The notes beneath the pieces are model-generated. The model was not told the origin of the DNA. It made no database searches and was given only the letters and a program-made list of their open reading frames with translations. Below, in pieces: positions 1,979 to 49,514 of a stretch of DNA of 53,902 nucleotides (position 1 is the stretch's first letter; every line of letters begins with the position of its first letter). Source of the DNA: a virus (lineage: Duplodnaviria > Caudoviricetes); IMG/VR virus record IMGVR_UViG_3300032296_000199, positions 1-53,902 of that record; one strand, 5' to 3'. The position numbers and the translations under genes were made by a program.

Positions 1979-4900
1979 TGGCAATTTCAGATCAAGACAT
2001 ATTTAACTGGTTTGTGCAGAATGAAGGCGCAGACGACGCTACTATTGCTGCCACAATGGATCAGTTTAAAGTGTCACCCGCTGACGTTGCGCGGGCCACA
2101 GGGACTGATTTAACAAATATTGAATCTAGGTATCAAGCAGCCGCCCCCGCACCAACAACTGATTATTTTGCGCAACAGTTTGGGCCAGATACTTCGGGGA
2201 TTGCTTCTCTCCCTGCTGCAACATCTGCTCCTTTTGTTACTACAGCTACTGTCACAGCGGCTCCGGTAGTCACGTCTGCCCCTGTAGTCACATCGGCTTT
2301 TGATTACGAAAGTATTTATGATGTTTTTGGCGGAAAAGGTGCTACTAATGACCTAATCACGCAATTTAGGGCTATGGGGCTGTCCGAAGATGCGATTGCT
2401 TCTGTCTTTGCTCCATATCAAAAAAACCCAACAACTACATTAGCTCCTGTAACTACGGCTGCTCCAGTCACAACTTTAGCTCCTGTAACAACGTTAGCGC
2501 CAATTGCAACGTCTAGTGTAATAACTACGGCTGCTCCAGTTACAACTTTAACTCCTGTAACCACCACCGCCACTACAGTAAATACTGGCTCAAATTACGA
2601 CCAAATGGTTCGTGATGCGTATGCGACTATTGGGCGCTCTGGCATTGGTGGGGCAACAAATCAAATTGACCAAGAAGGCTATAACAATTTTTTAAATGCA
2701 TTGCAGTCTGGCGCAATTAAACCAGCAGACTTCGCATCTACGTTTCAAAGTTCTGTTAAAGACTACATTGCCAAAAATCCCAATGACCGTTACTCACAGT
2801 ATGTTTTAGGTTATTTAGGTGTTAACACTGTCACAACTACTCCAGCACCTACAACCACGGCTGTTGGCATAGCCACACTTACAACTACTCCAGCACCCAC
2901 AACTACAGCGGCTCCTGTAACAACGTTAGCGCCAATTAATCTAAATAATGGTACATATTTAACTGCTACAGGCACAATCGTTGATACGTCAGGTAATGTG
3001 CTTGCGGATACTGGACATGCCGCCACTGCTACATTGACCCAACAAATTCTTGGGCAAAACTTGACGGATAGATGGCAAGGTCAGGGATGGGGGACGCCAC
3101 AAGCTAATGCTTCTGACATGGCAAGGATTTTGGCCAGTATTGGCATTACAGACATTAAACAGTTTGGTGAGGTTCCTCTTTTAGCGCCCGTTGAAGAAAT
3201 TGGTAAAACGTATAACGGAAACCAAGTTGTCAAAATTGACCTTGGCGATGGCGAAATTAGAAATGCGGTATATCAAAGCACTGGTCAATTTGACAGTGAT
3301 GGCAACGCAATCGGTCAATACGTGCCAATACCTAAAGACGCAAAAATTGAAACGCTTTACGGGGTATCTAATGGTGAAAGCTACAATGCCGTTGATCCAT
3401 CAAAAGTAAAAATAATAGATGGCAAACCTGTAGTTGACACAGGGCAAAAAACTTTTGGCAATAAAGTAACAGGCCAAGCCGTTCCTAATACATACAGTGA
3501 ACGTCAAACAGGAAATGCTTTTGGCGGCACGTTTGCTGGCGATGGTAATACTGGTTATCGTGTGCAATTTGCTCCTGATGGAACGCCAATCTTTTATACA
3601 ACGTACGCATCGTCTAACGATCTTGCAAATCTTTTATCAGACCTTGGCCCAATCGGTCAAATTGGTTTGGCTGTTGCCACGGGTGGTTTGTCTATACCTC
3701 AACAAATTGCGGCTCAGTTTGCAATAAGCGTATTGAGCGGCGCTGATATAGAAAACGCTATACAAGGAGCAGCAGCATCGTTTATTGGCTCTCAAATACC
3801 CGGTTTAGATGCAATGAAGGACGCTACTGCGTACCTAAATGGAATTGACCCAACTGGAGTTCTTGCCAGATCATTTACAGGCGCGGCAGTGGGGGCGACC
3901 ACTGGAATTATTACTGGGCAAGATTTATTGACATCAGCCGCAGCGGGCGCTGCAAGTGGTGGTTACTCTGGCGCTGCTGATGCAATCATGGGTAATTTTG
4001 ATTTGACTGGCTTGACCGCTTCTCAAAAATCTGCTTTAAAAAATACAGTTACAGGTGTAATTTCTGGCAAGCCACTTGACCAGACTTTGATGAATTCTAT
4101 TATTGGGCTTGTAAATTCAGAAATTAAAAATATTACAACAAGCCCTACTACAACTCTTTCACCATCTGTAACAGTTGCTGCTGACGACGACATTAATAAT
4201 CCTGTAGTTGGCCTTGATGCAGAAGGTAATTCCGTACGTTTAAATGATATCAATACATTGTTTGCGGGCAATACTGACTACGCCGCACAAGCATCAAATA
4301 TTCTTAATAGTTACGATGTTGCTGGCTTGGCGGCTGTGGCTGCTCCTGCGGCTGGCGCAACTGCGGCAACTAATTCTCCACTGCTCCGGCTTGTGCAAGC
4401 TGCGGCTAATGATCCAAACTATTCTACAAAACTTACCGCATTAGAAAGAGTGCTAACCGCTGCTGGTAGCTCTATCGCTAAAGTGTTGGGCACTGCTGTT
4501 TCGTTAGGTACTTATTCGCCCAATCTAAATGCAGATGAGGACGCAACATTAAAGCGTTTGCGTGAATCTGGGCTAGTCACAATAGATGATTTAAAGACTT
4601 CTCCTGCTACAACTCTTGCGCCCGTTACAACCCTTGCTCCAACTAGTACGCTTGCGCCTGTAACAACACAATATGTTGCGCAACCCGAAGATTACACAGA
4701 TACAACTGAAGAAGTCCAGAATTGGCAAAGTACGCTGGATGAAGTCTATTACACTGACGAAGTTGGGAATCCTGTTACTTTAAGAGACTATTACAGAATT
4801 ATAGGGTTTGAGCCTCCCGGACTACCACCCGGCGTTTTACCAACAAAGCCTACAACAACACAGGCTCCAGCGACTACCGCGCCTCCAGAAACTACTGCGC

Positions 4901-6525
4901 CCCCAGTTACGACAGCGGCTCCAGCTACTACGGCGGCTCCAGCTACTACGGCAGCTCCTGTAACAACAGCTAAACCTTTTACTATTGATGATCCAACTAC
5001 TTGGCCTGATCCAATAGATGATCCTGCGTTTGACCCATTAAAGCCGTCTACTTATCCCGCAACTACTGCGGCTCCAGCTACAACACAGGCTCCTGCTACA
5101 ACTTTAGCGCCGTCTGTAACAACCAAGCCTTTTACTATTGATGATCCAACCACTTGGCCTGATCCAATAGATGATCCTAATTTTGACCCGTTAAAGCCTG
5201 ATACGTATCCGGCTACTACGCTTGCGCCTAAGACAACGCTTGCACCTGCAACAACGCAGTCTCCAGCCACTACTCTTGCGCCTAAAACAACGCTTAGACC
5301 TGTTACTACTCTTGCCCCTGCAACAACTTTGGCTCCTGAGACCACGTTAGCGCCCAAGACGACGCTTGCTCCCGAGACGACGCTTGCTCCTGAAACAACG
5401 CTTGAGCCAGCTACTACTCTTGCACCTGCAACAACTCAGGCTCCCGGCACAACGCTTAAACCTGTAACAACCCTTGAGCCTGTAACAACGCTCGAGCCAG
5501 CTACTACACTTGCTCCCAAGACAACGCTTTCTCCTGAGACAACCCTTGAGCCAGCTACAACATTGGCTCCTAAGACGACCCTTGAGCCAGCTACAACATT
5601 GGCTCCTAAGACGACCCTTAAACCTGAGACTACGTTGGCTCCCAAGACTACGCTTGCCCCTGAGACAACGCTTAAACCTGAGACTACGCTTGCTCCTAAA
5701 ACAACTTTGGCTCCTGAGACTACTCTTAAGCCTGAGACTACACTGGCTCCCAAGACGACGCTTGCTCCTGAGACTACTCTCAAGCCTGAAACTACGTTAG
5801 CACCCAAGACAACGCTTGCTCCTGAGACTACTCTTAAGCCTGAGACAACGTTAGCTCCCAAGACAACTTTGGCTCCTGAGACTACGCTTAAGCCTGAGAC
5901 TACATTGGCTCCCAAAACCACGTTGGCTCCTGAGACTACTCTTGCGCCACCTACAACAACAGTTAAACCTACAACAACCGTACCGCCTACAACAGTTAAA
6001 CCTACAACAACCGTACCGCCTACAACCGTACCGCCTACAACTGCACCACCCACAACCGTACCGCCTACAACTGCGCCACCCACAACGATACCGCCTACAA
6101 CAATACCGCCTACAACAACGGTTGGCCCGACGACAACAATACCGCCTACAACTACCCCCGTGCCTACTACGACTAAAGTAGTTGTAACAACCACTGCTAC
6201 GCCTGCAACAACCAAGGCAAGTGGACAAAACTTAGGCTTAAACTTCCCGCAGGTGCAACAGGCACTTGCCGCTGCTGGCATCCCACAACTTGCCAATGTG
6301 TTCTATTACGGCAAGGACTTTACTTCTAAAAAGCAAAAAATTACCAAAGAAGGTGACTTGGTTGAAGAAGAGTACAAACCACTGAGTGTCGTTAAACCCG
6401 GCGCAGAGATAGAACAGCTTGCCGAAGAAGCAAAAAGCAAGCAAAATACAGCCCTAGATGTTGCCGATAAGCTCATGGGCGAAAATACGTCTTTTGAAGA
6501 CTTAATTAAAATTTTGAGGGGTTAA
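1978..6525 (+). CDS. Large putative internal virion/ejection protein with mucin-like Thr/Pro/Ala repeats (~1515 aa)
   Basis: ATG at 1978 overlaps the preceding TAA. Gly/Ala-rich hydrophobic central segments and extensive TTLAP/TTVPP repeats; sits at the head of the ejection-protein cluster. Confidence 0.75.
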   Translation: MAISDQDIFNWFVQNEGADDATIAATMDQFKVSPADVARATGTDLTNIESRYQAAAPAPTTDYFAQQFGPDTSGIASLPAATSAPFVTTATVTAAPVVTSAPVVTSAFDYESIYDVFGGKGATNDLITQFRAMGLSEDAIASVFAPYQKNPTTTLAPVTTAAPVTTLAPVTTLAPIATSSVITTAAPVTTLTPVTTTATTVNTGSNYDQMVRDAYATIGRSGIGGATNQIDQEGYNNFLNALQSGAIKPADFASTFQSSVKDYIAKNPNDRYSQYVLGYLGVNTVTTTPAPTTTAVGIATLTTTPAPTTTAAPVTTLAPINLNNGTYLTATGTIVDTSGNVLADTGHAATATLTQQILGQNLTDRWQGQGWGTPQANASDMARILASIGITDIKQFGEVPLLAPVEEIGKTYNGNQVVKIDLGDGEIRNAVYQSTGQFDSDGNAIGQYVPIPKDAKIETLYGVSNGESYNAVDPSKVKIIDGKPVVDTGQKTFGNKVTGQAVPNTYSERQTGNAFGGTFAGDGNTGYRVQFAPDGTPIFYTTYASSNDLANLLSDLGPIGQIGLAVATGGLSIPQQIAAQFAISVLSGADIENAIQGAAASFIGSQIPGLDAMKDATAYLNGIDPTGVLARSFTGAAVGATTGIITGQDLLTSAAAGAASGGYSGAADAIMGNFDLTGLTASQKSALKNTVTGVISGKPLDQTLMNSIIGLVNSEIKNITTSPTTTLSPSVTVAADDDINNPVVGLDAEGNSVRLNDINTLFAGNTDYAAQASNILNSYDVAGLAAVAAPAAGATAATNSPLLRLVQAAANDPNYSTKLTALERVLTAAGSSIAKVLGTAVSLGTYSPNLNADEDATLKRLRESGLVTIDDLKTSPATTLAPVTTLAPTSTLAPVTTQYVAQPEDYTDTTEEVQNWQSTLDEVYYTDEVGNPVTLRDYYRIIGFEPPGLPPGVLPTKPTTTQAPATTAPPETTAPPVTTAAPATTAAPATTAAPVTTAKPFTIDDPTTWPDPIDDPAFDPLKPSTYPATTAAPATTQAPATTLAPSVTTKPFTIDDPTTWPDPIDDPNFDPLKPDTYPATTLAPKTTLAPATTQSPATTLAPKTTLRPVTTLAPATTLAPETTLAPKTTLAPETTLAPETTLEPATTLAPATTQAPGTTLKPVTTLEPVTTLEPATTLAPKTTLSPETTLEPATTLAPKTTLEPATTLAPKTTLKPETTLAPKTTLAPETTLKPETTLAPKTTLAPETTLKPETTLAPKTTLAPETTLKPETTLAPKTTLAPETTLKPETTLAPKTTLAPETTLKPETTLAPKTTLAPETTLAPPTTTVKPTTTVPPTTVKPTTTVPPTTVPPTTAPPTTVPPTTAPPTTIPPTTIPPTTTVGPTTTIPPTTTPVPTTTKVVVTTTATPATTKASGQNLGLNFPQVQQALAAAGIPQLANVFYYGKDFTSKKQKITKEGDLVEEEYKPLSVVKPGAEIEQLAEEAKSKQNTALDVADKLMGENTSFEDLIKILRG
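4972..5219 (+). repeat. Internal duplication (153-bp period) encoding KPFTIDDPTTWPDPIDDPxFDPLKPxTYPATT
   Basis: Two near-identical copies starting at 4972 and 5125. Confidence 0.95.
5215..5945 (+). repeat. Coding tandem repeat: 18-bp unit encoding TTL(A/K/E)P(K/E/A/V), with a higher-order 54-bp unit (APKTTL-APETTL-KPETTL)
   Basis: Directly visible in DNA and translation; copies differ mainly at third codon positions. Confidence 0.95.
5946..6215 (+). repeat. Coding repeat of PPTT(V/A/I) units
   Basis: Repeated CCGCCTACAAC; translation PPTTVKPTTTVPPTTVPPTTAPP. Confidence 0.9.
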
Positions 6526-28332: not shown

Positions 28333-29273
28333 GGATTTCCTTTTCTTCTTGCGTGGGGCGCGATTGTTTTACTGCGGTAGTCAATGCCTGAGAAGTTTGC
28401 ATACTCAGCCAATGTCCTCGCCTTGCCTAGACCATAGATGCCAAGGTCAGCGTTGTGCTGTAGGAGTGCGGTCATCCTCGCCTTAGACTTGTTGTCTAGT
28501 TCCCACCATCGTTGGTTTCTTTCCTTGTCGGAGTTGGGAGACCAATGAACCTCTCGGTGTGTTGTAGCTACATCTCCTGTGCTATACAAGTGATAGATAG
28601 GCACATCCGTGGTGTGATAAATATCCCATCCATGTGTCCACGCACGCACCGAGAGAGTCTGCTCCTCGCCCTCAAAGTACAAGTGCGGGTCGTAAGGCAC
28701 TTCGTATACAAACCGCCCATGAGTGAAGATAAAACCTGCCGCCATGTGAAAGCCTTTCAGGGGTACATCACTTGTGCGAGATGAAGCGGTAAAAAGAATG
28801 ATCGTGTTCTCTTCTTTAAACTCAAAGTCATCGTTGACATAGTTATACAGAATCCCATCGGTAGTTCTCTCAGGTACAGGAACATCGTCAACCATCTTGA
28901 ATGGGTGTGGGTAATTGGATATAACAAACTTAGGCGACATCTGTGAGCAACGTGCTGCCGCTATGAGTAGTGTGTCATCCCACCCCTGATCAAATACCAT
29001 GTGAGAGTCGATCTGCATAAACCACGCCTCACCTGAGTAGAGTGACATGGCAAGGGAACGCGCCCAACAAGCACCTCTCGTATCGCGTACATCTATCCCA
29101 ACATACCTTACTTGGGATTTGATATCGTCAAACTTGAGTCGCCTTTCCGCAAAGTTTTGTTCTACTATTCCAAACCTCAACTCACTTGGGCGGCTAGCCT
29201 TTGCAAGCATGTCTCGTATGGTTTGTTCAAGTAGTCTGTCACAGTAGGATGCAACGCTAACAAAAATGGTCAT
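28329..29273 (-). CDS. GT60-family (Pfam GlcNAc; Gnt1/OGNT-like) N-acetylglucosaminyltransferase
   Basis: TIFVSVASYCD, RGACWAR, FMQIDSHMVF..GWD, AAGFIF, EVPYDPHLYFEGEE..LSVRAWTHGWD and IYHLY are the conserved blocks of Dictyostelium Skp1 GlcNAc-transferase-like enzymes. ATG 29273 overlaps the upstream TGA. Confidence 0.85.
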   Translation of the reverse strand: MTIFVSVASYCDRLLEQTIRDMLAKASRPSELRFGIVEQNFAERRLKFDDIKSQVRYVGIDVRDTRGACWARSLAMSLYSGEAWFMQIDSHMVFDQGWDDTLLIAAARCSQMSPKFVISNYPHPFKMVDDVPVPERTTDGILYNYVNDDFEFKEENTIILFTASSRTSDVPLKGFHMAAGFIFTHGRFVYEVPYDPHLYFEGEEQTLSVRAWTHGWDIYHTTDVPIYHLYSTGDVATTHREVHWSPNSDKERNQRWWELDNKSKARMTALLQHNADLGIYGLGKARTLAEYANFSGIDYRSKTIAPHARRKGNP

Positions 29274-29515
29274 GCTTGTCCCCTTGCTCGGATGGCTTTG
29301 GCAATATCTTGCCAATTTGCATATTGAGGGATGCGATGCGGTGTTGGTTCAGTCCCGCAAGCCACAACCACTTCATATTCTCCAATAGGCGTTTCAGCAA
29401 CTTTTGCACACGCCTCACGCTCTGCTGCTTCAACAAGGGCGGCAAAATGCTCGATGTCTCCATGCAAGGTCAGCCCATTGCCTTCAATCAGTTTAATAAT
29501 TTCATCTCTGTTCAT
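29270..29515 (-). CDS. Small protein, EREACAK...AIRARGQA family (copy 1)
   Basis: Shares motifs and 3' DNA sequence with 29820-30050. Confidence 0.75.
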   Translation of the reverse strand: MNRDEIIKLIEGNGLTLHGDIEHFAALVEAAEREACAKVAETPIGEYEVVVACGTEPTPHRIPQYANWQDIAKAIRARGQA

Positions 29516-29823
29516 TTAAAACTTCCGGTAGCTTTGTGTATTGCTGCCTTTGCAGCCAGATACCCAGTTGTGTAGTCTCCGGGCAGGCTTGGCTCTGGCA
29601 CTTGCCGCATCAGCCATTGCAGTGATTCAAGTAACTCAGGTGCAGCAGCAGCTAACTTTGCGTTCGCCTCACGGTTATCAGGCAGTCGCTTGTCATGGTG
29701 CGCTGCGAGTATTGGGGCGTAGCCACCTGTGTAGCCTTTTGCGCTTTCGGGGCGTATTGCCCCGCCTACTGCCCTCCACGGGCCGGGTGTTGGTTTCATA
29801 CTTTCTCCTTCGGCTTTAGTCAT
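29512..29823 (-). CDS. Small phage protein (TPGPW...ANAxLxAAAPELL family)
   Basis: Widespread phage early-gene motif; ATGA overlaps on both sides. Confidence 0.75.
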   Translation of the reverse strand: MTKAEGESMKPTPGPWRAVGGAIRPESAKGYTGGYAPILAAHHDKRLPDNREANAKLAAAAPELLESLQWLMRQVPEPSLPGDYTTGYLAAKAAIHKATGSFK

Positions 29824-30050
29824 GCTTGTCCCCTTGCTCGGATGGCTTCAACGCAACGATATGCGTAACCACCCTCCCACCCATCCTCTGTCGCAATCTC
29901 ATCACACACCTTTGCACACGCCTCACGCTCTTGCTCAATGGCTAAGTTGACCAATGCCACCAAGTGCGGAGTTGATACAGTCCACGTTGTGTAGTGCTTG
30001 TTCTCTTGGATTACCTTGTACAGTGCATCTAGGATTTCATCTTGTGTCAT
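29820..30050 (-). CDS. Small protein, EREACAK...AIRARGQA family (copy 2)
   Basis: Paralogue of 29270-29515. Confidence 0.75.
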   Translation of the reverse strand: MTQDEILDALYKVIQENKHYTTWTVSTPHLVALVNLAIEQEREACAKVCDEIATEDGWEGGYAYRCVEAIRARGQA

Positions 30051-33563: not shown

Positions 33564-34766
33564 TCAATTCTCCATAAATACTTTTTTACCTGATGGAGGA
33601 GTCCAATTCTTGTTCTCCGTTACCATCCACAAAGTTGGTGATGAGATATTCCACACCACATCGCTCTCAAGATAACCATCGGTGAACACCAATACGCATT
33701 CAGCATTGATCTTCTTCTTATTTATGTATTCAGCCACAGATGAAACTCTAGTTCCCCCGCCACCCAAAGGCTTCAACATCGAACCGATTTGGTCATAGTT
33801 ATCCGTAAAGAGTTGTTCACCATGTACCTTGGTGTCCCACCACAAAATGCGCACCGCATCAGGCGAGACTGCCTCACAGATAGAGACCAGTTCTGAGGCG
33901 AACTCATCAAGTTGTTGTTGTCCAATAGAACCTGAAGTGTCGATTGCCACCACGACCTCACCAATAGTTTCATTCTCTACTGTTGGTAGATAGATATCGT
34001 TGGAGATGAGTCGCCTATTGAACTTGCGCCATGTGTACTCATCCTTGCCTTTGCATGATGAAGTTACAAAGTCAGCCAACTCTTTCTTCCAATCAATGAC
34101 AGGGTTAAGTAAGTCGCTGATAGATCGGGGCAAGTCAATACCCAAGCGACCCGCTAAGAGTGCGCCTTCTCGTATTGCTCTGTCGATCTTGCCATCCATC
34201 TCCTTGGCTTCCTCCTGAGTCATTTGCTTGCCAAAGTCATGCTTGTCGAATTCGTATTCACCACCCCCTGAACCACTACCCTTCTCGCCTTCCTTGTCAG
34301 GCTTACCACCACCTCCGCCACCACCCTTCTTGCTCTTGAGTAATTTGTACACCTCACGCATGCTCATGTTGTGATACTGCGGGTCATACAGTCCACCCTT
34401 GGGTAGTTGAACTAACTCGGGATACTTCTTGCTGATCTCCGTGATCATGTCATTGACCACATAGTCAGCCGCCTTGTTAGCCTTCTCACCATCCTCCTTG
34501 AACATGTCTGCTCCGTGCAGATGGTGTCGCAATCCAATGTGCAAGTTCTCATGCAAGATAAGCCCATTCACCTCGGGTTGTGTTGGACAGATAGTCTGTA
34601 AGAATGTTCTGCCATACTTCTTGTTGATGCCATCCGTATAGGCGGTGATCGCCTCATCCACCACCTCAGTCGAACCCATCATCATCACGCCACCCCACAA
34701 TGCAGTCTCGGGGTGTTTCATCAGGGCGATATGCCCCTTCTTGATTCGTTGCTCTTCAGTAATCAT
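33564..34766 (-). CDS. DUF2201-type metallopeptidase plus VWA-like domain protein
   Basis: TAYTDG, LHENLH (HExxH), N.AADYVVN, VAIDTSGS (MIDAS), GGGGT and VFTDGY. Confidence 0.88.
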   Translation of the reverse strand: MITEEQRIKKGHIALMKHPETALWGGVMMMGSTEVVDEAITAYTDGINKKYGRTFLQTICPTQPEVNGLILHENLHIGLRHHLHGADMFKEDGEKANKAADYVVNDMITEISKKYPELVQLPKGGLYDPQYHNMSMREVYKLLKSKKGGGGGGGKPDKEGEKGSGSGGGEYEFDKHDFGKQMTQEEAKEMDGKIDRAIREGALLAGRLGIDLPRSISDLLNPVIDWKKELADFVTSSCKGKDEYTWRKFNRRLISNDIYLPTVENETIGEVVVAIDTSGSIGQQQLDEFASELVSICEAVSPDAVRILWWDTKVHGEQLFTDNYDQIGSMLKPLGGGGTRVSSVAEYINKKKINAECVLVFTDGYLESDVVWNISSPTLWMVTENKNWTPPSGKKVFMEN

Positions 34767-37047: not shown

Positions 37048-37251
37048 TCAACGACTCCCTTTATGAGATGAGTTAAGGTTAAGTAACAAGGAACGATCAG
37101 TCACAACTATGTAGTTGGACTTGGGCATCGGCACGATTGTGTGTTTCACAGAACGCGCGTGTAACTCGCCACATGGCATACACAATGTATAACCATGTAG
37201 TTGGCGAGCAATAGAAAATGGTTCACCACAGACTGAACAACTAGGTGTCAC
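37048..37251 (-). CDS. Small Zn-finger protein
   Basis: CSVCG...CMPCG; PMPKSNY motif. Confidence 0.7.
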   Translation of the reverse strand: MTPSCSVCGEPFSIARQLHGYTLCMPCGELHARSVKHTIVPMPKSNYIVVTDRSLLLNLNSSHKGSR

Positions 37252-38329: not shown

Positions 38330-38409
38330 TGCTTTCTCCTAGAATTTTTTCACTACCCCCTGAATGACTAAACAGGGGTTCGATGAGTCTAATCACCCAC
38401 CGAACTTCC

Positions 38410-38459: not shown

Positions 38460-39007
38460 ATGTGAGGTTTTTGGAATTTAAATGGGCTTTTGTAAAGTGG
38501 CGTTGGAATTTGGAAAATGGTTGGAATTTATTTGGGATAGGTTTCACAGGGCTAACTATACTTATATAGTATATATATAGATATAATAGTATTCTTTTTT
38601 AAAAAAGAGTGCTGATGTAAAAAGTGCAAATTCCAAAATTCCAAAATTCCAAGGCGATGTGGAAAGAACGAGGAGGTTTGATTTTGCAAGAAAAATGATT
38701 TAGTTAAGTTAAAACAAGCGTTGCCTTGCACTAGCTGGCAAAGAGAAGCGAACGTGAATAACTCTAAGGTGTTGGCTCTCCTCCGCAGAAACTGGAATTT
38801 TGGAATATCCACAAGATATCCACAGGTTATACACGAAATTCTCTTTATAAAACAACAACTTAGCAAAGTTCCAATTTCGATTCCAATTTTGGAACGACTT
38901 TACAAATAAGTGGAATTTCTAGGTAGTAACCCTAGTTTCAGATTTGGAATTCCAATGTTCCAGCTCAGTTCCAGTTGTGTTGGAATTACATTGGAACATT
39001 GGAATAA
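38460..39007. other. Putative replication origin: TGGAA/TTCCA iterons, AT-rich core and DnaA-box-like triplet
   Basis: About 20 TGGAA/TTCCA copies in both orientations; AT-rich palindromic tract 38555-38610; ATATCCACA x2 plus TTATACACG at 38805-38835. Confidence 0.6.
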
Positions 39008-39104
39008 TTTCACTAACCCCTGAACGACTAAGTTAGAGCCTTGCCCACGCACACGCTCGCTCACACACGCGACGACAAGTAACTGGTCTCGTAGGGTCGA
39101 GACG

Positions 39105-45267: not shown

Positions 45268-45455
45268 ACGAGATAGAACTGCTTAAGAAGCAGAATGACG
45301 AATTTCGCCAACAGGCGATAGACAAACTTGCTACTGGCGGAGTCAAAGACTACGCAGAGTATCGAGAATTGGTAGGGGTTATTAGAGGTCTTGACCATGC
45401 CAATTACAACCTTCAAGACCTCAAACAACGTATAGAAAGACTAAACGATGAGTGA
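45264..45455 (+). CDS. Small conserved protein after portal
   Basis: G...DY.EYR..VG.IRGL motif; ATGA overlap. Confidence 0.7.
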   Translation: MNEIELLKKQNDEFRQQAIDKLATGGVKDYAEYRELVGVIRGLDHANYNLQDLKQRIERLNDE

Positions 45456-45852
45456 AATACTCGTAAGCCAAGACGGTGCCACAGCCACTGTACTTCCCGC
45501 GACGGCTGAAGAGAAAGCTAAGCAGGTTCCTGATCCTGCTACTTTTCATATTCTTTGCATGCTTCCCAAAGCAGAAGAAGAATTTAGTGAATCCGGCATC
45601 CTTAAATCCGCTACTGCCATGTACCACGAGGAGCTTCTTTCCCCCGTGTTATTCGTAGCCAAAATAGGGCCAGATGCATTTAAAGATGAAAAGAGGTTTC
45701 CTTCCGGGCCTGCGTGCCAAGTTGGAGATTTCATTATCACCCGCCCCAATACTGGCACCCGTATGAAAATACATGGTACAGAGTGGCGTTTGATCAATGA
45801 TGACTCTATCCAAGCAGTTGTTCAAGACCCTCGCGGTATTCAACGCCCATAA
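45448..45852 (+). CDS. GroES/Cpn10-like co-chaperonin
   Basis: P...IL, mobile-loop-like SESGIL, V..IGPDA, VGD.I and RLINDDSIQAVV. Confidence 0.75.
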   Translation: MSEILVSQDGATATVLPATAEEKAKQVPDPATFHILCMLPKAEEEFSESGILKSATAMYHEELLSPVLFVAKIGPDAFKDEKRFPSGPACQVGDFIITRPNTGTRMKIHGTEWRLINDDSIQAVVQDPRGIQRP

Positions 45853-47940: not shown

Positions 47941-48852
47941 ATGGCTATTTCACGCGCACAACTACTTAAAGAGTTGCTCCCCGGTCTGAACGCATTGTTC
48001 GGTCTGGAATACGCTAAATACGGCGAAGAGCACAAAGAGATCTACGAAACTGAGACATCAGAGCGTAGCTTCGAAGAAGAGACAAAGCTTTCTGGCTTCT
48101 CTGCTGCACCTGTCAAGAATGAAGGCTCCGCCATTCAGTACGACAATGCGCAAGAGGCATGGACTGCACGTTACACCCACGAAACCATTGCGATGGGCTT
48201 TTCCATCACAGAGGAAGCTGTGGAAGATAACTTGTACGACAGCTTGTCTTCACGCTACACCAAGGCTTTGGCCCGTGGTATGGCTTACACCAAGCAAGTT
48301 AAAGCTGCTTATGTGTTGAACAACGCCTTCACTGGCGGCCCAACATACGGCGACGGCGTGGTTCTGTGTTCTACAGCCCACCCACTTGTCTCTGGTGGCA
48401 CTAACAGCAACCGTCCTACAACAGGCGCTGACTTGAATGAAACATCGTTGGAAAACGCTGTTATTCAGATCGCTGCTTGGACAGACGAGCGCGGTTTGTT
48501 GATCGCTGCTAAGCCTCGCAAGCTTATCATCCCCCCAGCACTGCAATTCGTTGCAACTCGTTTGTTGGAAACCGAACTCCGCGTCGGTACAACTGACAAC
48601 GATATCAATGCATTGAAGAACAACGGTTCGATCTCTGAAGGTTACACTGTTAACCACTATTTGACCGACACCAATGCTTGGTTCTTGACAACAGACGTAC
48701 CTAACGGCCTGAAGCACTTTGTTCGTTCACCCTTGTCTAACAGCATGGATGGCGACTTTGACACAGGTAACGTGCGTTACAAAGCCCGTGAGCGTTACAG
48801 CTTCGGCGTGTCAGACCCACTGGGTATCTTTGGTTCACCCGGTTCGTCCTGA
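47941..48852 (+). CDS. Major capsid protein (HK97 fold; Mu gpT-like family)
   Basis: MAISRAQLLKELLPGLNALFG...ERYSFG.SDP.G.FGS; strong SD AAGGAG; highly biased codons; followed by a terminator. Confidence 0.9.
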   Translation: MAISRAQLLKELLPGLNALFGLEYAKYGEEHKEIYETETSERSFEEETKLSGFSAAPVKNEGSAIQYDNAQEAWTARYTHETIAMGFSITEEAVEDNLYDSLSSRYTKALARGMAYTKQVKAAYVLNNAFTGGPTYGDGVVLCSTAHPLVSGGTNSNRPTTGADLNETSLENAVIQIAAWTDERGLLIAAKPRKLIIPPALQFVATRLLETELRVGTTDNDINALKNNGSISEGYTVNHYLTDTNAWFLTTDVPNGLKHFVRSPLSNSMDGDFDTGNVRYKARERYSFGVSDPLGIFGSPGSS

Positions 48853-48859
48853 TGAAATT

Positions 48860-48890
48860 GAAAAAGGGGCCTTGTGCCCCTTTTTCTTTT
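48860..48890 (+). terminator. Rho-independent terminator after the capsid gene
   Basis: GAAAAAGGGGC-cttgt-GCCCCTTTTTC-TTTT. Confidence 0.88.
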
Positions 48891-48900
48891 AGTGTATATT
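48872..48900 (+). promoter_or_regulatory. Candidate promoter TTGTGC-17-TATATT embedded in the terminator
   Basis: 17-bp spacer; would start transcription at about 48907, the 5' edge of the structured leader. Confidence 0.45.
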
Positions 48901-48907
48901 GTTCTTA

Positions 48908-48985
48908 ATCCGGGCTTTCCGGTGTATCAAACTGTCCCGGCAGACATCATGCAAGATTGATACACCTTTAACTGCATGAAGGAAA
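48908..48985 (+). ncRNA. Candidate double-pseudoknot cis-regulatory RNA
   Basis: 10-bp stem 48921-30/48957-66, plus CCGGG/CCCGG and TCATGCA/TGCATGA pairings, the last abutting the SD. Confidence 0.6.
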
Positions 48986-48989
48986 TATC

Positions 48990-49514
48990 ATGGGATTCGC
49001 AACTCACCTTGGCCCTTGGCTCTTGGGCACTGTCCGTAACACAACTGGCACTACTGTCGGTACTATTGAGAACTGCGGTGCAACCGTTGTTACTCAAACA
49101 TTTAAAAAGAACTACACAGGCCAAGCCGCTTCTGCGACTACTGACACCATCTGCGTGTTGCCTGCTGGCGCTCAAATCGTTGACATTTTCATTGACACCA
49201 CCGTTGCGTTTACAGGCTCTACAGCCGCAAACGTGAGCATTGGTGATGGCACAACAGCCGCCTTGTACTGGGCCGCTACAGACGTTACCGCTCTTGGCCG
49301 CGCCGCTATCAGCAATGCCTCTGCTAAATTGGGTGCATGGTGCGGAGCGGCTTCTACAGCTTCTCCTAATGGTATTGGCGTTGGCCCAACAGACGTGAAG
49401 ATTGTTGCCACAATGACTCCAACTGTTGCGGCAGTAACTGCTGGTACTGTGCAGTACACAATCATGTACGTGGTTGCTGACTCTAACGGCTCACAATTCC
49501 CAGCATCTGCTTAA
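48990..49514 (+). CDS. Putative virion structural (head decoration-like) protein
   Basis: Thr/Ala-rich beta protein with LPAGAQI.D motif; directly after the major capsid gene. Confidence 0.65.
   Translation: MGFATHLGPWLLGTVRNTTGTTVGTIENCGATVVTQTFKKNYTGQAASATTDTICVLPAGAQIVDIFIDTTVAFTGSTAANVSIGDGTTAALYWAATDVTALGRAAISNASAKLGAWCGAASTASPNGIGVGPTDVKIVATMTPTVAAVTAGTVQYTIMYVVADSNGSQFPASA

Follow-up and report, generated by a model that had tools for sequence, protein, structure and literature searches.

Several described RNAs place a compact pseudoknot at or near the start of a transcript or of a coding region. The preQ1-II and SAM-II/SAM-V riboswitches are compact pseudoknots of the 5′ leader that reach the ribosome-binding site, and their covarying helices are joined by invariant junctions. 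The 5′ leader of the phage T4 gene 32 messenger RNA (mRNA) and the S4 site of the Escherichia coli alpha operon are also pseudoknotted and control translation of the following gene; the S4 site surrounds the ribosome-binding site with a double pseudoknot, and the phage gene 32 is regulated by the protein it encodes. In the exoribonuclease-resistant RNAs (xrRNAs) of flaviviruses the 5′ end pairs inward, a hairpin lies within a stem, and the 3′ tail takes part in a second pseudoknot. Ribozymes resembling that of hepatitis delta virus (HDV) are nested double pseudoknots, which also occur in phages. Here we describe a leader that has features of each of these systems and is similar in size to the HDV-like ribozymes. 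It is located in the IMG/VR virus record IMGVR_UViG_3300032296_000199 (53,902 bp, estimated completeness 85%), the whole of which was analyzed and is called the window below, between the major capsid protein gene and a gene for a predicted capsid cement (decoration) protein. It is a conserved RNA, apparently undescribed before, in which all four helices covary. Coordinates are window positions and all parts lie on the + strand.

The strand order of the leader is PK1a-P1a-P2 hairpin (loop = PK1b)-PK2a-P1b-PK2b, where P1 and P2 are the stems, PK1 and PK2 the two pseudoknots, and a and b the 5′ and 3′ strands. Compared with preQ1-II and SAM-II/SAM-V, the two pseudoknots are interleaved, the transcript 5′ end would take part in one of them, the only gene context is a virion gene, and no Rfam family matches. 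It differs from the T4 gene 32 and S4 leaders in its strand order and in a fold that begins at the first transcript bases, and no sequence relation to them is expected. The likeness to xrRNAs includes a possible ring around the 5′ end. The pairing partners in xrRNAs are a three-way junction and a hairpin loop, whereas those of the leader are the P2 loop and an internal strand. Moreover, xrRNAs face the exonuclease Xrn1, while the leader would face bacterial RNase E, RppH or RNase J. The order in HDV-like ribozymes is P1-P2-P3 hairpin-P1′-(P1.1)-P4-P2′, with cleavage 5′ of P1. The leader, by contrast, has its hairpin ahead of the second pseudoknot strand, and the loop of this hairpin is the partner of the 5′ strand; with this different order and no match to the family in Rfam, membership of the HDV-like ribozymes is not indicated.

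A survey published in 2023 (PMC10690425) reported 8495 unnamed structured-RNA candidates (DNAVirus_N) predicted in the intergenic regions of IMG/VR, many of them lying directly upstream of phage structural genes. It used the same collection in which the leader motif is abundant, and the motif may already be among its uncharacterized candidates. The accessible part of its text describes no leader of a cement or decoration gene, nor this fold, a function, pseudoknots or a link to pelagiphages. No description of the element was found in the searchable literature on the cultured Pelagibacter phage HTVC023P, on pelagiphage RNA motifs or on pseudoknots at phage capsid genes, and the genome paper on HTVC023P-type phages mentions no riboswitch, noncoding or intergenic elements, or secondary structure.

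Structure of the Leader

Positions 48907-48989 presumably represent the entire 5′ leader of the gene 3′ of the major capsid gene, with a start that is predicted from the position of the promoter. The original prediction, made from the window sequence alone, had described a 10-bp stem, a mini-hairpin, two pseudoknots and a contact with the Shine-Dalgarno sequence; all are present in the window and are kept with covariation in relatives. P1 consists of 10 perfect pairs between GGTGTATCAA (48921-48930) and TTGATACACC (48957-48966). A single junction A (48931), followed by the first C of P2, leads into the P2 hairpin CTG-TCCCGG-CAG (48932-48943), in which CTG (48932-48934) and CAG (48941-48943) form 3 bp around a 6-nt loop. 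The bases 48936-48940 of this loop are the 3′ strand of PK1 and form 5 bp with CCGGG (48910-48914) upstream of P1.

On the 3′ side of P2, AC followed by A (48944-48946) reads GAC together with the last G of P2. The 5′ strand of PK2, TCATGCA (48947-48953), comes next and is separated by the junction AGA (48954-48956) from the second P1 strand. Its partner TGCATGA (48973-48979) completes the 7 bp of PK2, and the last base of this strand is shared with the Shine-Dalgarno sequence AAGGA (48979-48983). The cement gene (48990-49514, 174 aa) starts with ATG at 48990.

Relatives and Distribution

For the 174-aa protein, 587 relatives were confirmed in IMG/VR, and 80 of these loci were retained; in a large protein collection it has 2553 relatives, none of them informatively named. 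The upstream regions of all 80 kept loci contain visibly the same element with different helix sequences. A further 160 IMG/VR loci were collected with the corresponding proteins of the freshwater phage DSL-LC04 and of HTVC023P as queries. Two covariance models were used: R1, from 26 close members and containing P1 and P2 only, and R2, from 37 diverse members aligned with MAFFT. R1 matched 73 of 81 sources (the window and its 80 IMG/VR relatives) once each, on the + strand and ending at the start codon, and the eight others were all matched by the broader R2. R2 also matched all 89 sources chosen for their diversity. With two stragglers added to the HTVC023P-gp41 set, it matched 81 of 82, and the sole miss (L150) has no upstream DNA. 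For the DSL set together with the annotated records the figure was 44 of 84, and for the DSL-set loci alone 41 of 80, with two of the 39 loci without a match (L194 and L216) having too little upstream DNA to score. The window leader reaches 91.9 bits in the R1 search and 65.7 bits in that with R2; with the junctions A, GAC and AGA, a PK1 of 5 bp and a PK2 of 7 bp, it fits the definition of the family.

When whole records were searched, one copy was found in the window, in four of five near-complete relatives, in DSL-LC04 and in HTVC023P. The fifth near-complete relative contains two copies, the second within a second capsid-plus-cement module near the contig end. The Pelagibacter phage HTVC027P also has one copy and an additional match of 17 bits that we regard as noise. 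Its genome carries two small open reading frames (ORFs) between the capsid and cement genes, with the motif directly before the cement gene (gp62), and the element therefore belongs to the cement gene and not to the 3′ end of the capsid gene. All matches lie upstream of the cement gene, without the shared metabolic or transport gene theme expected of a riboswitch. The motif is thus present in both cultured HTVC023P-type pelagiphages and is carried by hundreds of IMG/VR contigs from lakes and oceans. DSL-LC04 and HTVC023P share the RNA fold of the window with entirely different helix sequences. A protein-based scan of 185,579 species genomes gave one cement-protein relative, L249, with the motif at 67.4 bits.

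Two of these records deserve a separate remark. L249 is a phage-sized 55-kb contig binned with a metagenome-assembled genome of Candidatus Methylopumilus, which may hint at the host of the freshwater clade or reflect an error of binning. A contig of 68,272 bp (G004, with loci L052 and L245) carries two different capsid-plus-cement modules at its ends, with a separate leader variant in each; in the second of these variants, P2 measures 6 bp and PK1 is GAGGT/GCCTC. This contig is rated 100% complete, yet it probably joins two strains in a chimeric or wrap-around assembly.

Covariation of the Four Helices

Covariation in related phages and a comparison with Rfam had been named as checks along with the original prediction. 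Compensatory changes were found in all four helices. In alignment A4 (58 distinct rows, annotated with the four helices), 96.1% of the cells are paired, vs. 87.4% after shuffling, and double changes occur at 15 of 26 pairs, vs. 6.9 expected, a value reached by none of 500 shuffles. When the partner was moved by one to three columns, 25-40% of the cells were paired. Alignment A7 (89 distinct rows, P1 and P2) is more diverse, with 96.9% of cells paired vs. 62.1% after shuffling, double changes at all 12 pairs, and 350 double-change cells vs. 112 in the shuffled alignments. For P1 alone, all nine modeled pairs are doubly changed and 98.2% of cells are paired. The middle pair of P2 is UA in 40, AU in 23, GC in 20 and CG in six of the 89 rows, and the P2 loop measures 6 nt in nearly all members. 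Both alignments were fitted to P1 and P2, which favors those helices. RNAalifold, run on the MAFFT-only alignment A6 to which no structure was fitted, recovered the six inner pairs of P1, all of them doubly changed.

The columns of PK1 and PK2 in A4 undercount the changes, since divergent rows are out of register, and the covariance model does not include these strands; each strand was therefore compared with its own and with swapped partners. This test comprised 87 rows (L180 and L245 were left out), and the swaps for PK1 were taken from rows with a different loop. PK1 formed a duplex of 5 bp or more with its own partner in 85 rows, and PK2 did so in 86 rows, vs. means of 2.95 and 3.82 bp, respectively, with swapped partners. 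The rows include nine distinct PK1 loop 5-mers and 23 distinct PK2 6-mers; among the relatives, PK1 is found as CCGGG/CCCGG, CTGGG/CCCAG, CCTAG/CTAGG and ACTATAC/GTATAGT. A strict descriptor of all four helices, allowing no mismatch, fits 183 of 238 leaders vs. 14 of 714 shuffles. It returned 75 distinct helix combinations, five of which are mis-registered parses (L125, L160, L202, L238, L244) that were removed before the promoter, Shine-Dalgarno and hairpin counts given below. G-U pairs are present in the sense of the + strand, which points to an RNA and not to a DNA palindrome.

The junctions are nearly invariant. The A before the first C of P2 is found in 88 of the 89 rows and GAC in 86, and the junction before the P1 3′ strand reads AGA in 67 rows and NGA in 87.

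Single-Sequence Signal and Known RNA Families

The nested minimum-free-energy fold of the window leader includes the 10-bp stem, with a z-score of only -0.46, and 61 of 200 shuffled sequences fold equally well. The P1 10-mer is not in excess elsewhere in the window (five matches with at most one mismatch vs. 3.17 expected). That the leader is more than a chance structure follows from its conservation with compensatory changes in relatives. The minimum-free-energy fold had also suggested that the 5′ strand of PK2 mimics the start-codon region, with PK2b as an alternative trap for the AUG. This was rejected as a property of the family, since it is not visible in the HTVC-type and ACTATAC-type leaders.

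No existing family of Rfam 15 (4227 families) matches the leader. At gathering thresholds, no matches were obtained over the whole window or on five divergent members, HTVC023P and DSL-LC04 among them. With E-values up to 10, the region 48850-49010 gave sub-threshold matches only, mostly on the terminator, the best being sraA on the minus strand with 21.9 bits vs. a gathering score of 56. Under the same E-value limit the leader matched none of the pistol, twister, hammerhead and hatchet ribozymes.

Promoter, Shine-Dalgarno Sequence and Transcription

The major capsid protein gene (47941-48852, 303 aa) was identified by Pfam Phage_capsid_4 (E-value 2e-14) and PHROG 371 (major head protein) and has about 68% nucleotide identity to the annotated capsid genes of the Planktothrix phage Pag-Yong1 and of DSL-LC04. 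It is followed by an intrinsic terminator (48860-48886) with an 11-pair stem including six G-C pairs, a loop of 5 nt and a T run. A predicted sigma-70-type promoter (48872-48900) overlaps this terminator. Its -35 box TTGTGC (48872-48877) lies within the terminator and is separated by a 17-nt spacer from the -10 box TATATT (48895-48900). The promoter had already been proposed at the 5′ edge of the RNA; it is present there, and its -10 box keeps its distance to PK1 in relatives. In the window it scores below the threshold of a simple promoter scan. Among 118 distinct upstream regions of relatives, 107 have a -10 hexamer with at least five of six matches (TATATT, TATAAA or TATAAT), and the box ends 6-9 nt 5′ of PK1a in 104. 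Many relatives also have TTGCAC as the -35 box 17 nt upstream, as well as TGn preceding the -10 box. From this conserved position, transcription should start 0-3 nt before PK1a, which in the window corresponds to a predicted start at 48907-48909, 7-9 nt downstream of 48900. The matches of the covariance models begin at 48902 (R1) and 48907 (R2).

The Shine-Dalgarno sequence starts between -4 and +4 nt from the last base of PK2 in all 72 distinct leaders and overlaps PK2 in 33 of them, and its distance to the start codon is 4-9 nt. With the spacing of the promoter, the fold thus fills the whole leader, from its first bases to the ribosome-binding site.

Metatranscriptome contigs from all four runs cover the capsid gene and leader of relatives, and two contigs bridge the leader into the ORF (X17 record 24, 48922-49145; X15 record 7, 48867-49018). 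As contigs from RNA libraries carry no information on RNA ends, strand or level, they provide a weak hint that the region is transcribed. In a contig from run X16, a sequencing adapter is joined directly to the leader of a relative inside P1, with the loose end before 48948. This junction may mark a frequent end of the RNA or its complementary DNA (a reverse transcription stop or cleavage) or may be an assembly artefact. An RNA-seq time course of HTVC027P infection of HTCC1062 has been published (PMC12753301).

The Downstream Cement Protein

The gene following the capsid gene is annotated as "cement protein" in DSL-LC04 and as "minor capsid protein" in Pag-Yong1. The window protein shares 31% identity with the former (E-value 2e-7) and is also similar to the latter (E-value 1e-7). 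HTVC023P gp41 occupies the same gene position and has an N-terminal motif in common with the window protein, and their BLASTP similarity is not significant (E-value 0.38). The window protein matched no Pfam or PHROG family, and sequence searches of the PDB gave no match. An AlphaFold model from an alignment of 55 sequences has a pLDDT (predicted local distance difference test score) of 71.6, with about 88 in the beta core; a first model from 26 close sequences (pLDDT 55.3) was not used for the fold search. The top match in Foldseek is chain H of the Pam1 capsid (E-value 2.4e-6, template modeling score 0.68 on the target), and the KHP30 capsid, the KHP40 "trimeric cement protein" and chain J of the GP4 capsid are among the further top-ranked matches. 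Based on the predicted fold, the annotation of homologues and the position beside the capsid gene, we assign the gene to a predicted jelly-roll capsid cement protein. This agrees with the original prediction of a decoration protein, through the homology to an annotated cement protein and the match to the Pam1, KHP40 and GP4 folds. According to the GP4 capsid paper, each head contains 540 cement and 540 capsid protein copies, and such proteins would thus be needed in the amounts of the capsid protein.

An Alternative 5′ Hairpin

The CCGG at 48919-48922 can pair with 48910-48913 in an alternative 5′ hairpin that overlaps the first two pairs of P1. This hairpin had been proposed to compete with the first pseudoknot, a claim that holds for part of the family. 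It is possible in all 23 distinct leaders of the CCGGG class, with its 3′ arm overlapping the outer end of P1, and it covaries within the CCGGG/CTGGG subfamily: leaders with CTGGG as PK1a have the hairpin partner CCAG (L071, L249) or CAG (L079), and a leader with CCGGA has TCGG (L221). No alternative hairpin is found in the CCTAG, CTAGG and ACTATAC leader classes. The hairpin is therefore a subfamily feature and not a family-wide property, and within the subfamily it could be either a switch or a folding intermediate.

Relatives With Simple Leaders

About half of the DSL-type loci, as well as the Roseobacter phages CRP-901 and CRP-902, have shorter leaders without the knot. These simple leaders typically contain a hairpin flanked by GA and AC and then more GAC triplets before the Shine-Dalgarno sequence. 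Among the trinucleotides of 38 representative leaders, which are not fully independent of each other, GAC shows the strongest excess (115 occurrences vs. 39.6 expected, z-score 13.7), and at least three GAC are present in 31 of these leaders. The window leader contains a single GAC. GAC triplets were therefore not retained as a universal determinant, and their enrichment in the representatives serves as a lead only. In a tree of 80 DSL-type proteins, the label of knotted or simple leader needs at least 12 changes, seven of them forced by well-supported branches.

A pattern without the knot was observed in CRP-901 (L246, 1430-1503) and in a subset of L175-L243. It consists of CCC, 1-3 nt, GAC, a covarying hairpin, GAC, 5-9 nt, GAC and the Shine-Dalgarno sequence.

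Other Repeats and Gaps in the Window

A 180-nt gap (45268-45447) before a 134-aa ORF (45448-45852) contains six GAC on the + strand, making it the densest of the listed intergenic gaps; relatives carry a GroES-like gene 5′ of their scaffold and capsid genes. The region 2425-6218 is a very long array of tandem repeats with units of 18 nt (six codons) and 15 nt, in which ACn and CCn codons are frequent. Each family has 35-43 copies with 60-80% identity, and the array presumably encodes a Thr/Pro/Ala-rich repetitive domain of a large structural or fiber protein. A family of 22-nt direct repeats (D14; 34257-34278, 37222-37243, 38349-38370 and 39009-39030; 82-86% identity) has three of its four copies in intergenic gaps and could represent phage promoters or regulator sites of the early/middle region. 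There is also an exact 30-nt direct repeat (D18; 29269-29298 and 29819-29848, 550 nt apart), and an inverted repeat with 25-nt arms, 80% complementary, and a 7-nt spacer occupies an intergenic gap at 38949-39005 (I11).

Proposed Function of the Leader

We consider it likely that the cement gene has a separate transcript made by the host RNA polymerase, with a leader that belongs to a cis-acting double-pseudoknot family setting translation and 5′-end stability. The polymerase would start this mRNA at the promoter overlapping the capsid-gene terminator. The members of the family are RNAs of 75-85 nt that form one compact double pseudoknot in which P1 encloses P2. The predicted first bases of the transcript pair with the P2 loop (PK1), and a strand within P1 pairs with the tract at or overlapping the Shine-Dalgarno sequence (PK2); three short purine-rich junctions (A, GAC, AGA) come together at the core. 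Acting in cis on its own mRNA, the leader may have two effects. Bacterial RNase E and RppH act on 5′ ends at which a few bases are unpaired. PK1 would leave almost no free 5′ end and may thereby protect the mRNA from 5′-end-dependent decay, and PK2 would fix the exposure of the ribosome-binding site and thereby set the yield of cement protein. Our leading candidate for a factor recognizing the leader is a guess, namely free cement protein binding the P2 hairpin and the flanking A/GAC/AGA junctions; it is ranked first because of the exclusive gene linkage, the hairpin-plus-GAC signature in the simple leaders and the known precedents of assembly proteins that repress the mRNAs encoding them.

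Several observations speak against this reading. A simple hairpin would suffice for 5′ protection, and protection alone therefore does not explain the elaborate core. The fold is present in only 41 of 80 loci of the DSL-LC04-type clade and was not found in CRP-901, CRP-902 and Pag-Yong1. The knot is dispensable and exchangeable on short time scales, and its task is therefore probably one that can be fulfilled as well by a simpler leader if the flanking signature is the same. The folding energy of the window leader alone (z-score -0.46) is unremarkable. In the metatranscriptomes, one contig (X18 record 31, 48775-48950) spans the capsid gene and the terminator into the leader, and DNA carry-over into the libraries is possible.

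The original prediction had named a riboswitch-like or protein-binding translational control, or a small ribozyme, as candidates for setting the stoichiometry of the decoration protein. The more specific readings differ in whether the leader responds to a signal, and to which. An autogenous operator is a particular version of the mechanism just described, which we regard as a tentative and rather unlikely proposal. Unassembled cement protein would bind P2 and the A/GAC/AGA core, stabilize PK2 over the Shine-Dalgarno sequence and stop its own translation, and the supply of cement would be matched to the capsid sites that are still free. The motif goes with the cement gene alone, even where this gene has moved from the capsid gene, and the simple leaders retain the GA/AC-flanked hairpin and the GAC triplets, whose enrichment (z-score 13.7) suggests a partner that reads the sequence; a trimeric cement protein is among the matches of the protein fold, and the junction elements number three. 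Autogenous control is known from T4 gene 32, the P22 scaffolding protein and the double pseudoknot of S4 and the alpha operon. On the other hand, jelly-roll cement proteins are not known to bind RNA, the window and HTVC023P share the RNA core despite proteins that can hardly be aligned (BLASTP E-value 0.38), and the GAC argument is reduced by the single GAC of the window leader and by representatives that are not fully independent. We rank about equal to such an effector a constitutive element without any effector, itself rather doubtful, in which a 5′ stabilizer and translation-presenting fold would provide a stable, well-translated mRNA for a protein needed in capsid amounts. A strong promoter of its own directly 3′ of a strong terminator, a 5′ end paired within 0-3 nt of the predicted start, a Shine-Dalgarno sequence on the 3′ border of the fold, spaced normally (4-9 nt) from the start codon, and the equal-copy requirement suggested by the GP4 paper all agree with it, and the interchange with simple leaders suggests a generic job. 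Invariant junctions and two pseudoknots kept from freshwater to marine phages exceed the needs of stabilization, however, and PK2 covers part of the Shine-Dalgarno sequence in 33 of 72 leaders, which would lower and not raise translation. A small-molecule riboswitch is ranked lower and seems improbable to us, because the single gene context is non-metabolic and the alternative hairpin is not universal. Here the junction core would bind a small molecule or ion, shift the balance between the 5′ hairpin and PK1, stabilize PK2 and alter access to the Shine-Dalgarno sequence. As in small pseudoknot aptamers, invariant junction bases stand beside freely covarying helices, PK2b adjoins the Shine-Dalgarno sequence or overlaps it, and the mutually exclusive hairpin covaries with PK1 in the CCGGG/CTGGG subfamily. 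Yet the sole context is a structural gene without a metabolic link, the hairpin is missing in the CCTAG, CTAGG and ACTATAC classes, close relatives repeatedly swap the fold for simple leaders, and no Rfam riboswitch family matches.

Both an antitermination RNA and a ribozyme are unlikely. In the former, which we hold to be very improbable, the promoter-proximal RNA would modify the RNA polymerase such that the late operon is read through terminators, as in the processive antitermination by the put RNAs of phage HK022. Its place at the very start of a transcript leading into the remaining structural genes and following a terminator would fit, but the 3′ boundary is tied to the Shine-Dalgarno sequence in all 72 distinct leaders, which is needless for a polymerase-directed element, and the leader is similar to no Rfam family. 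A self-cleaving ribozyme trimming read-through or primary transcripts has even less to recommend it. The leader is a small phage RNA with a double pseudoknot and few invariant bases, and the X16 adapter junction inside P1 could mark a common RNA end; this junction is known from a single contig of a single run, however, and may be a reverse transcription stop or assembly artefact. In addition, the sequence comparisons gave no evidence of self-cleavage, no Rfam ribozyme matches at E-values up to 10, the strand order is unlike that of HDV-like, pistol or twister ribozymes, and an element that begins at the promoter leaves little to cut off. Finally, inverted repeats arising by chance, or a palindrome acting at the DNA level, for example as a protein operator, can practically be discarded. 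The unexceptional single-sequence fold would agree with chance, but the compensatory changes preserve pairing and not sequence in four helices, G-U pairs occur on the + strand only and matches on one strand only, and the comparative data thus contradict it.

Implications for Phage Biology

Structured 5′ leaders controlling translation are a known kind of element, whereas this fold would constitute a new RNA family outside Rfam 15. As a natural double pseudoknot of 80 nt with more than 70 covarying variants, it is an attractive target for RNA structure determination. The finding points to a post-transcriptional layer in the control of capsid assembly among phages relying on the host polymerase. 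The leader might also represent a new class of sensor RNA, a possibility that we consider doubtful, and it would then be the first riboswitch-like element gating a virion structural gene, with the exchange between 5′ hairpin and PK1 and the overlap of PK2 with the Shine-Dalgarno sequence reading a cellular or assembly signal. If so, that signal could be a small ligand or free trimeric cement protein acting via the A/GAC/AGA junctions, and the synthesis of cement protein would be timed in the most abundant pelagiphage group of the ocean.

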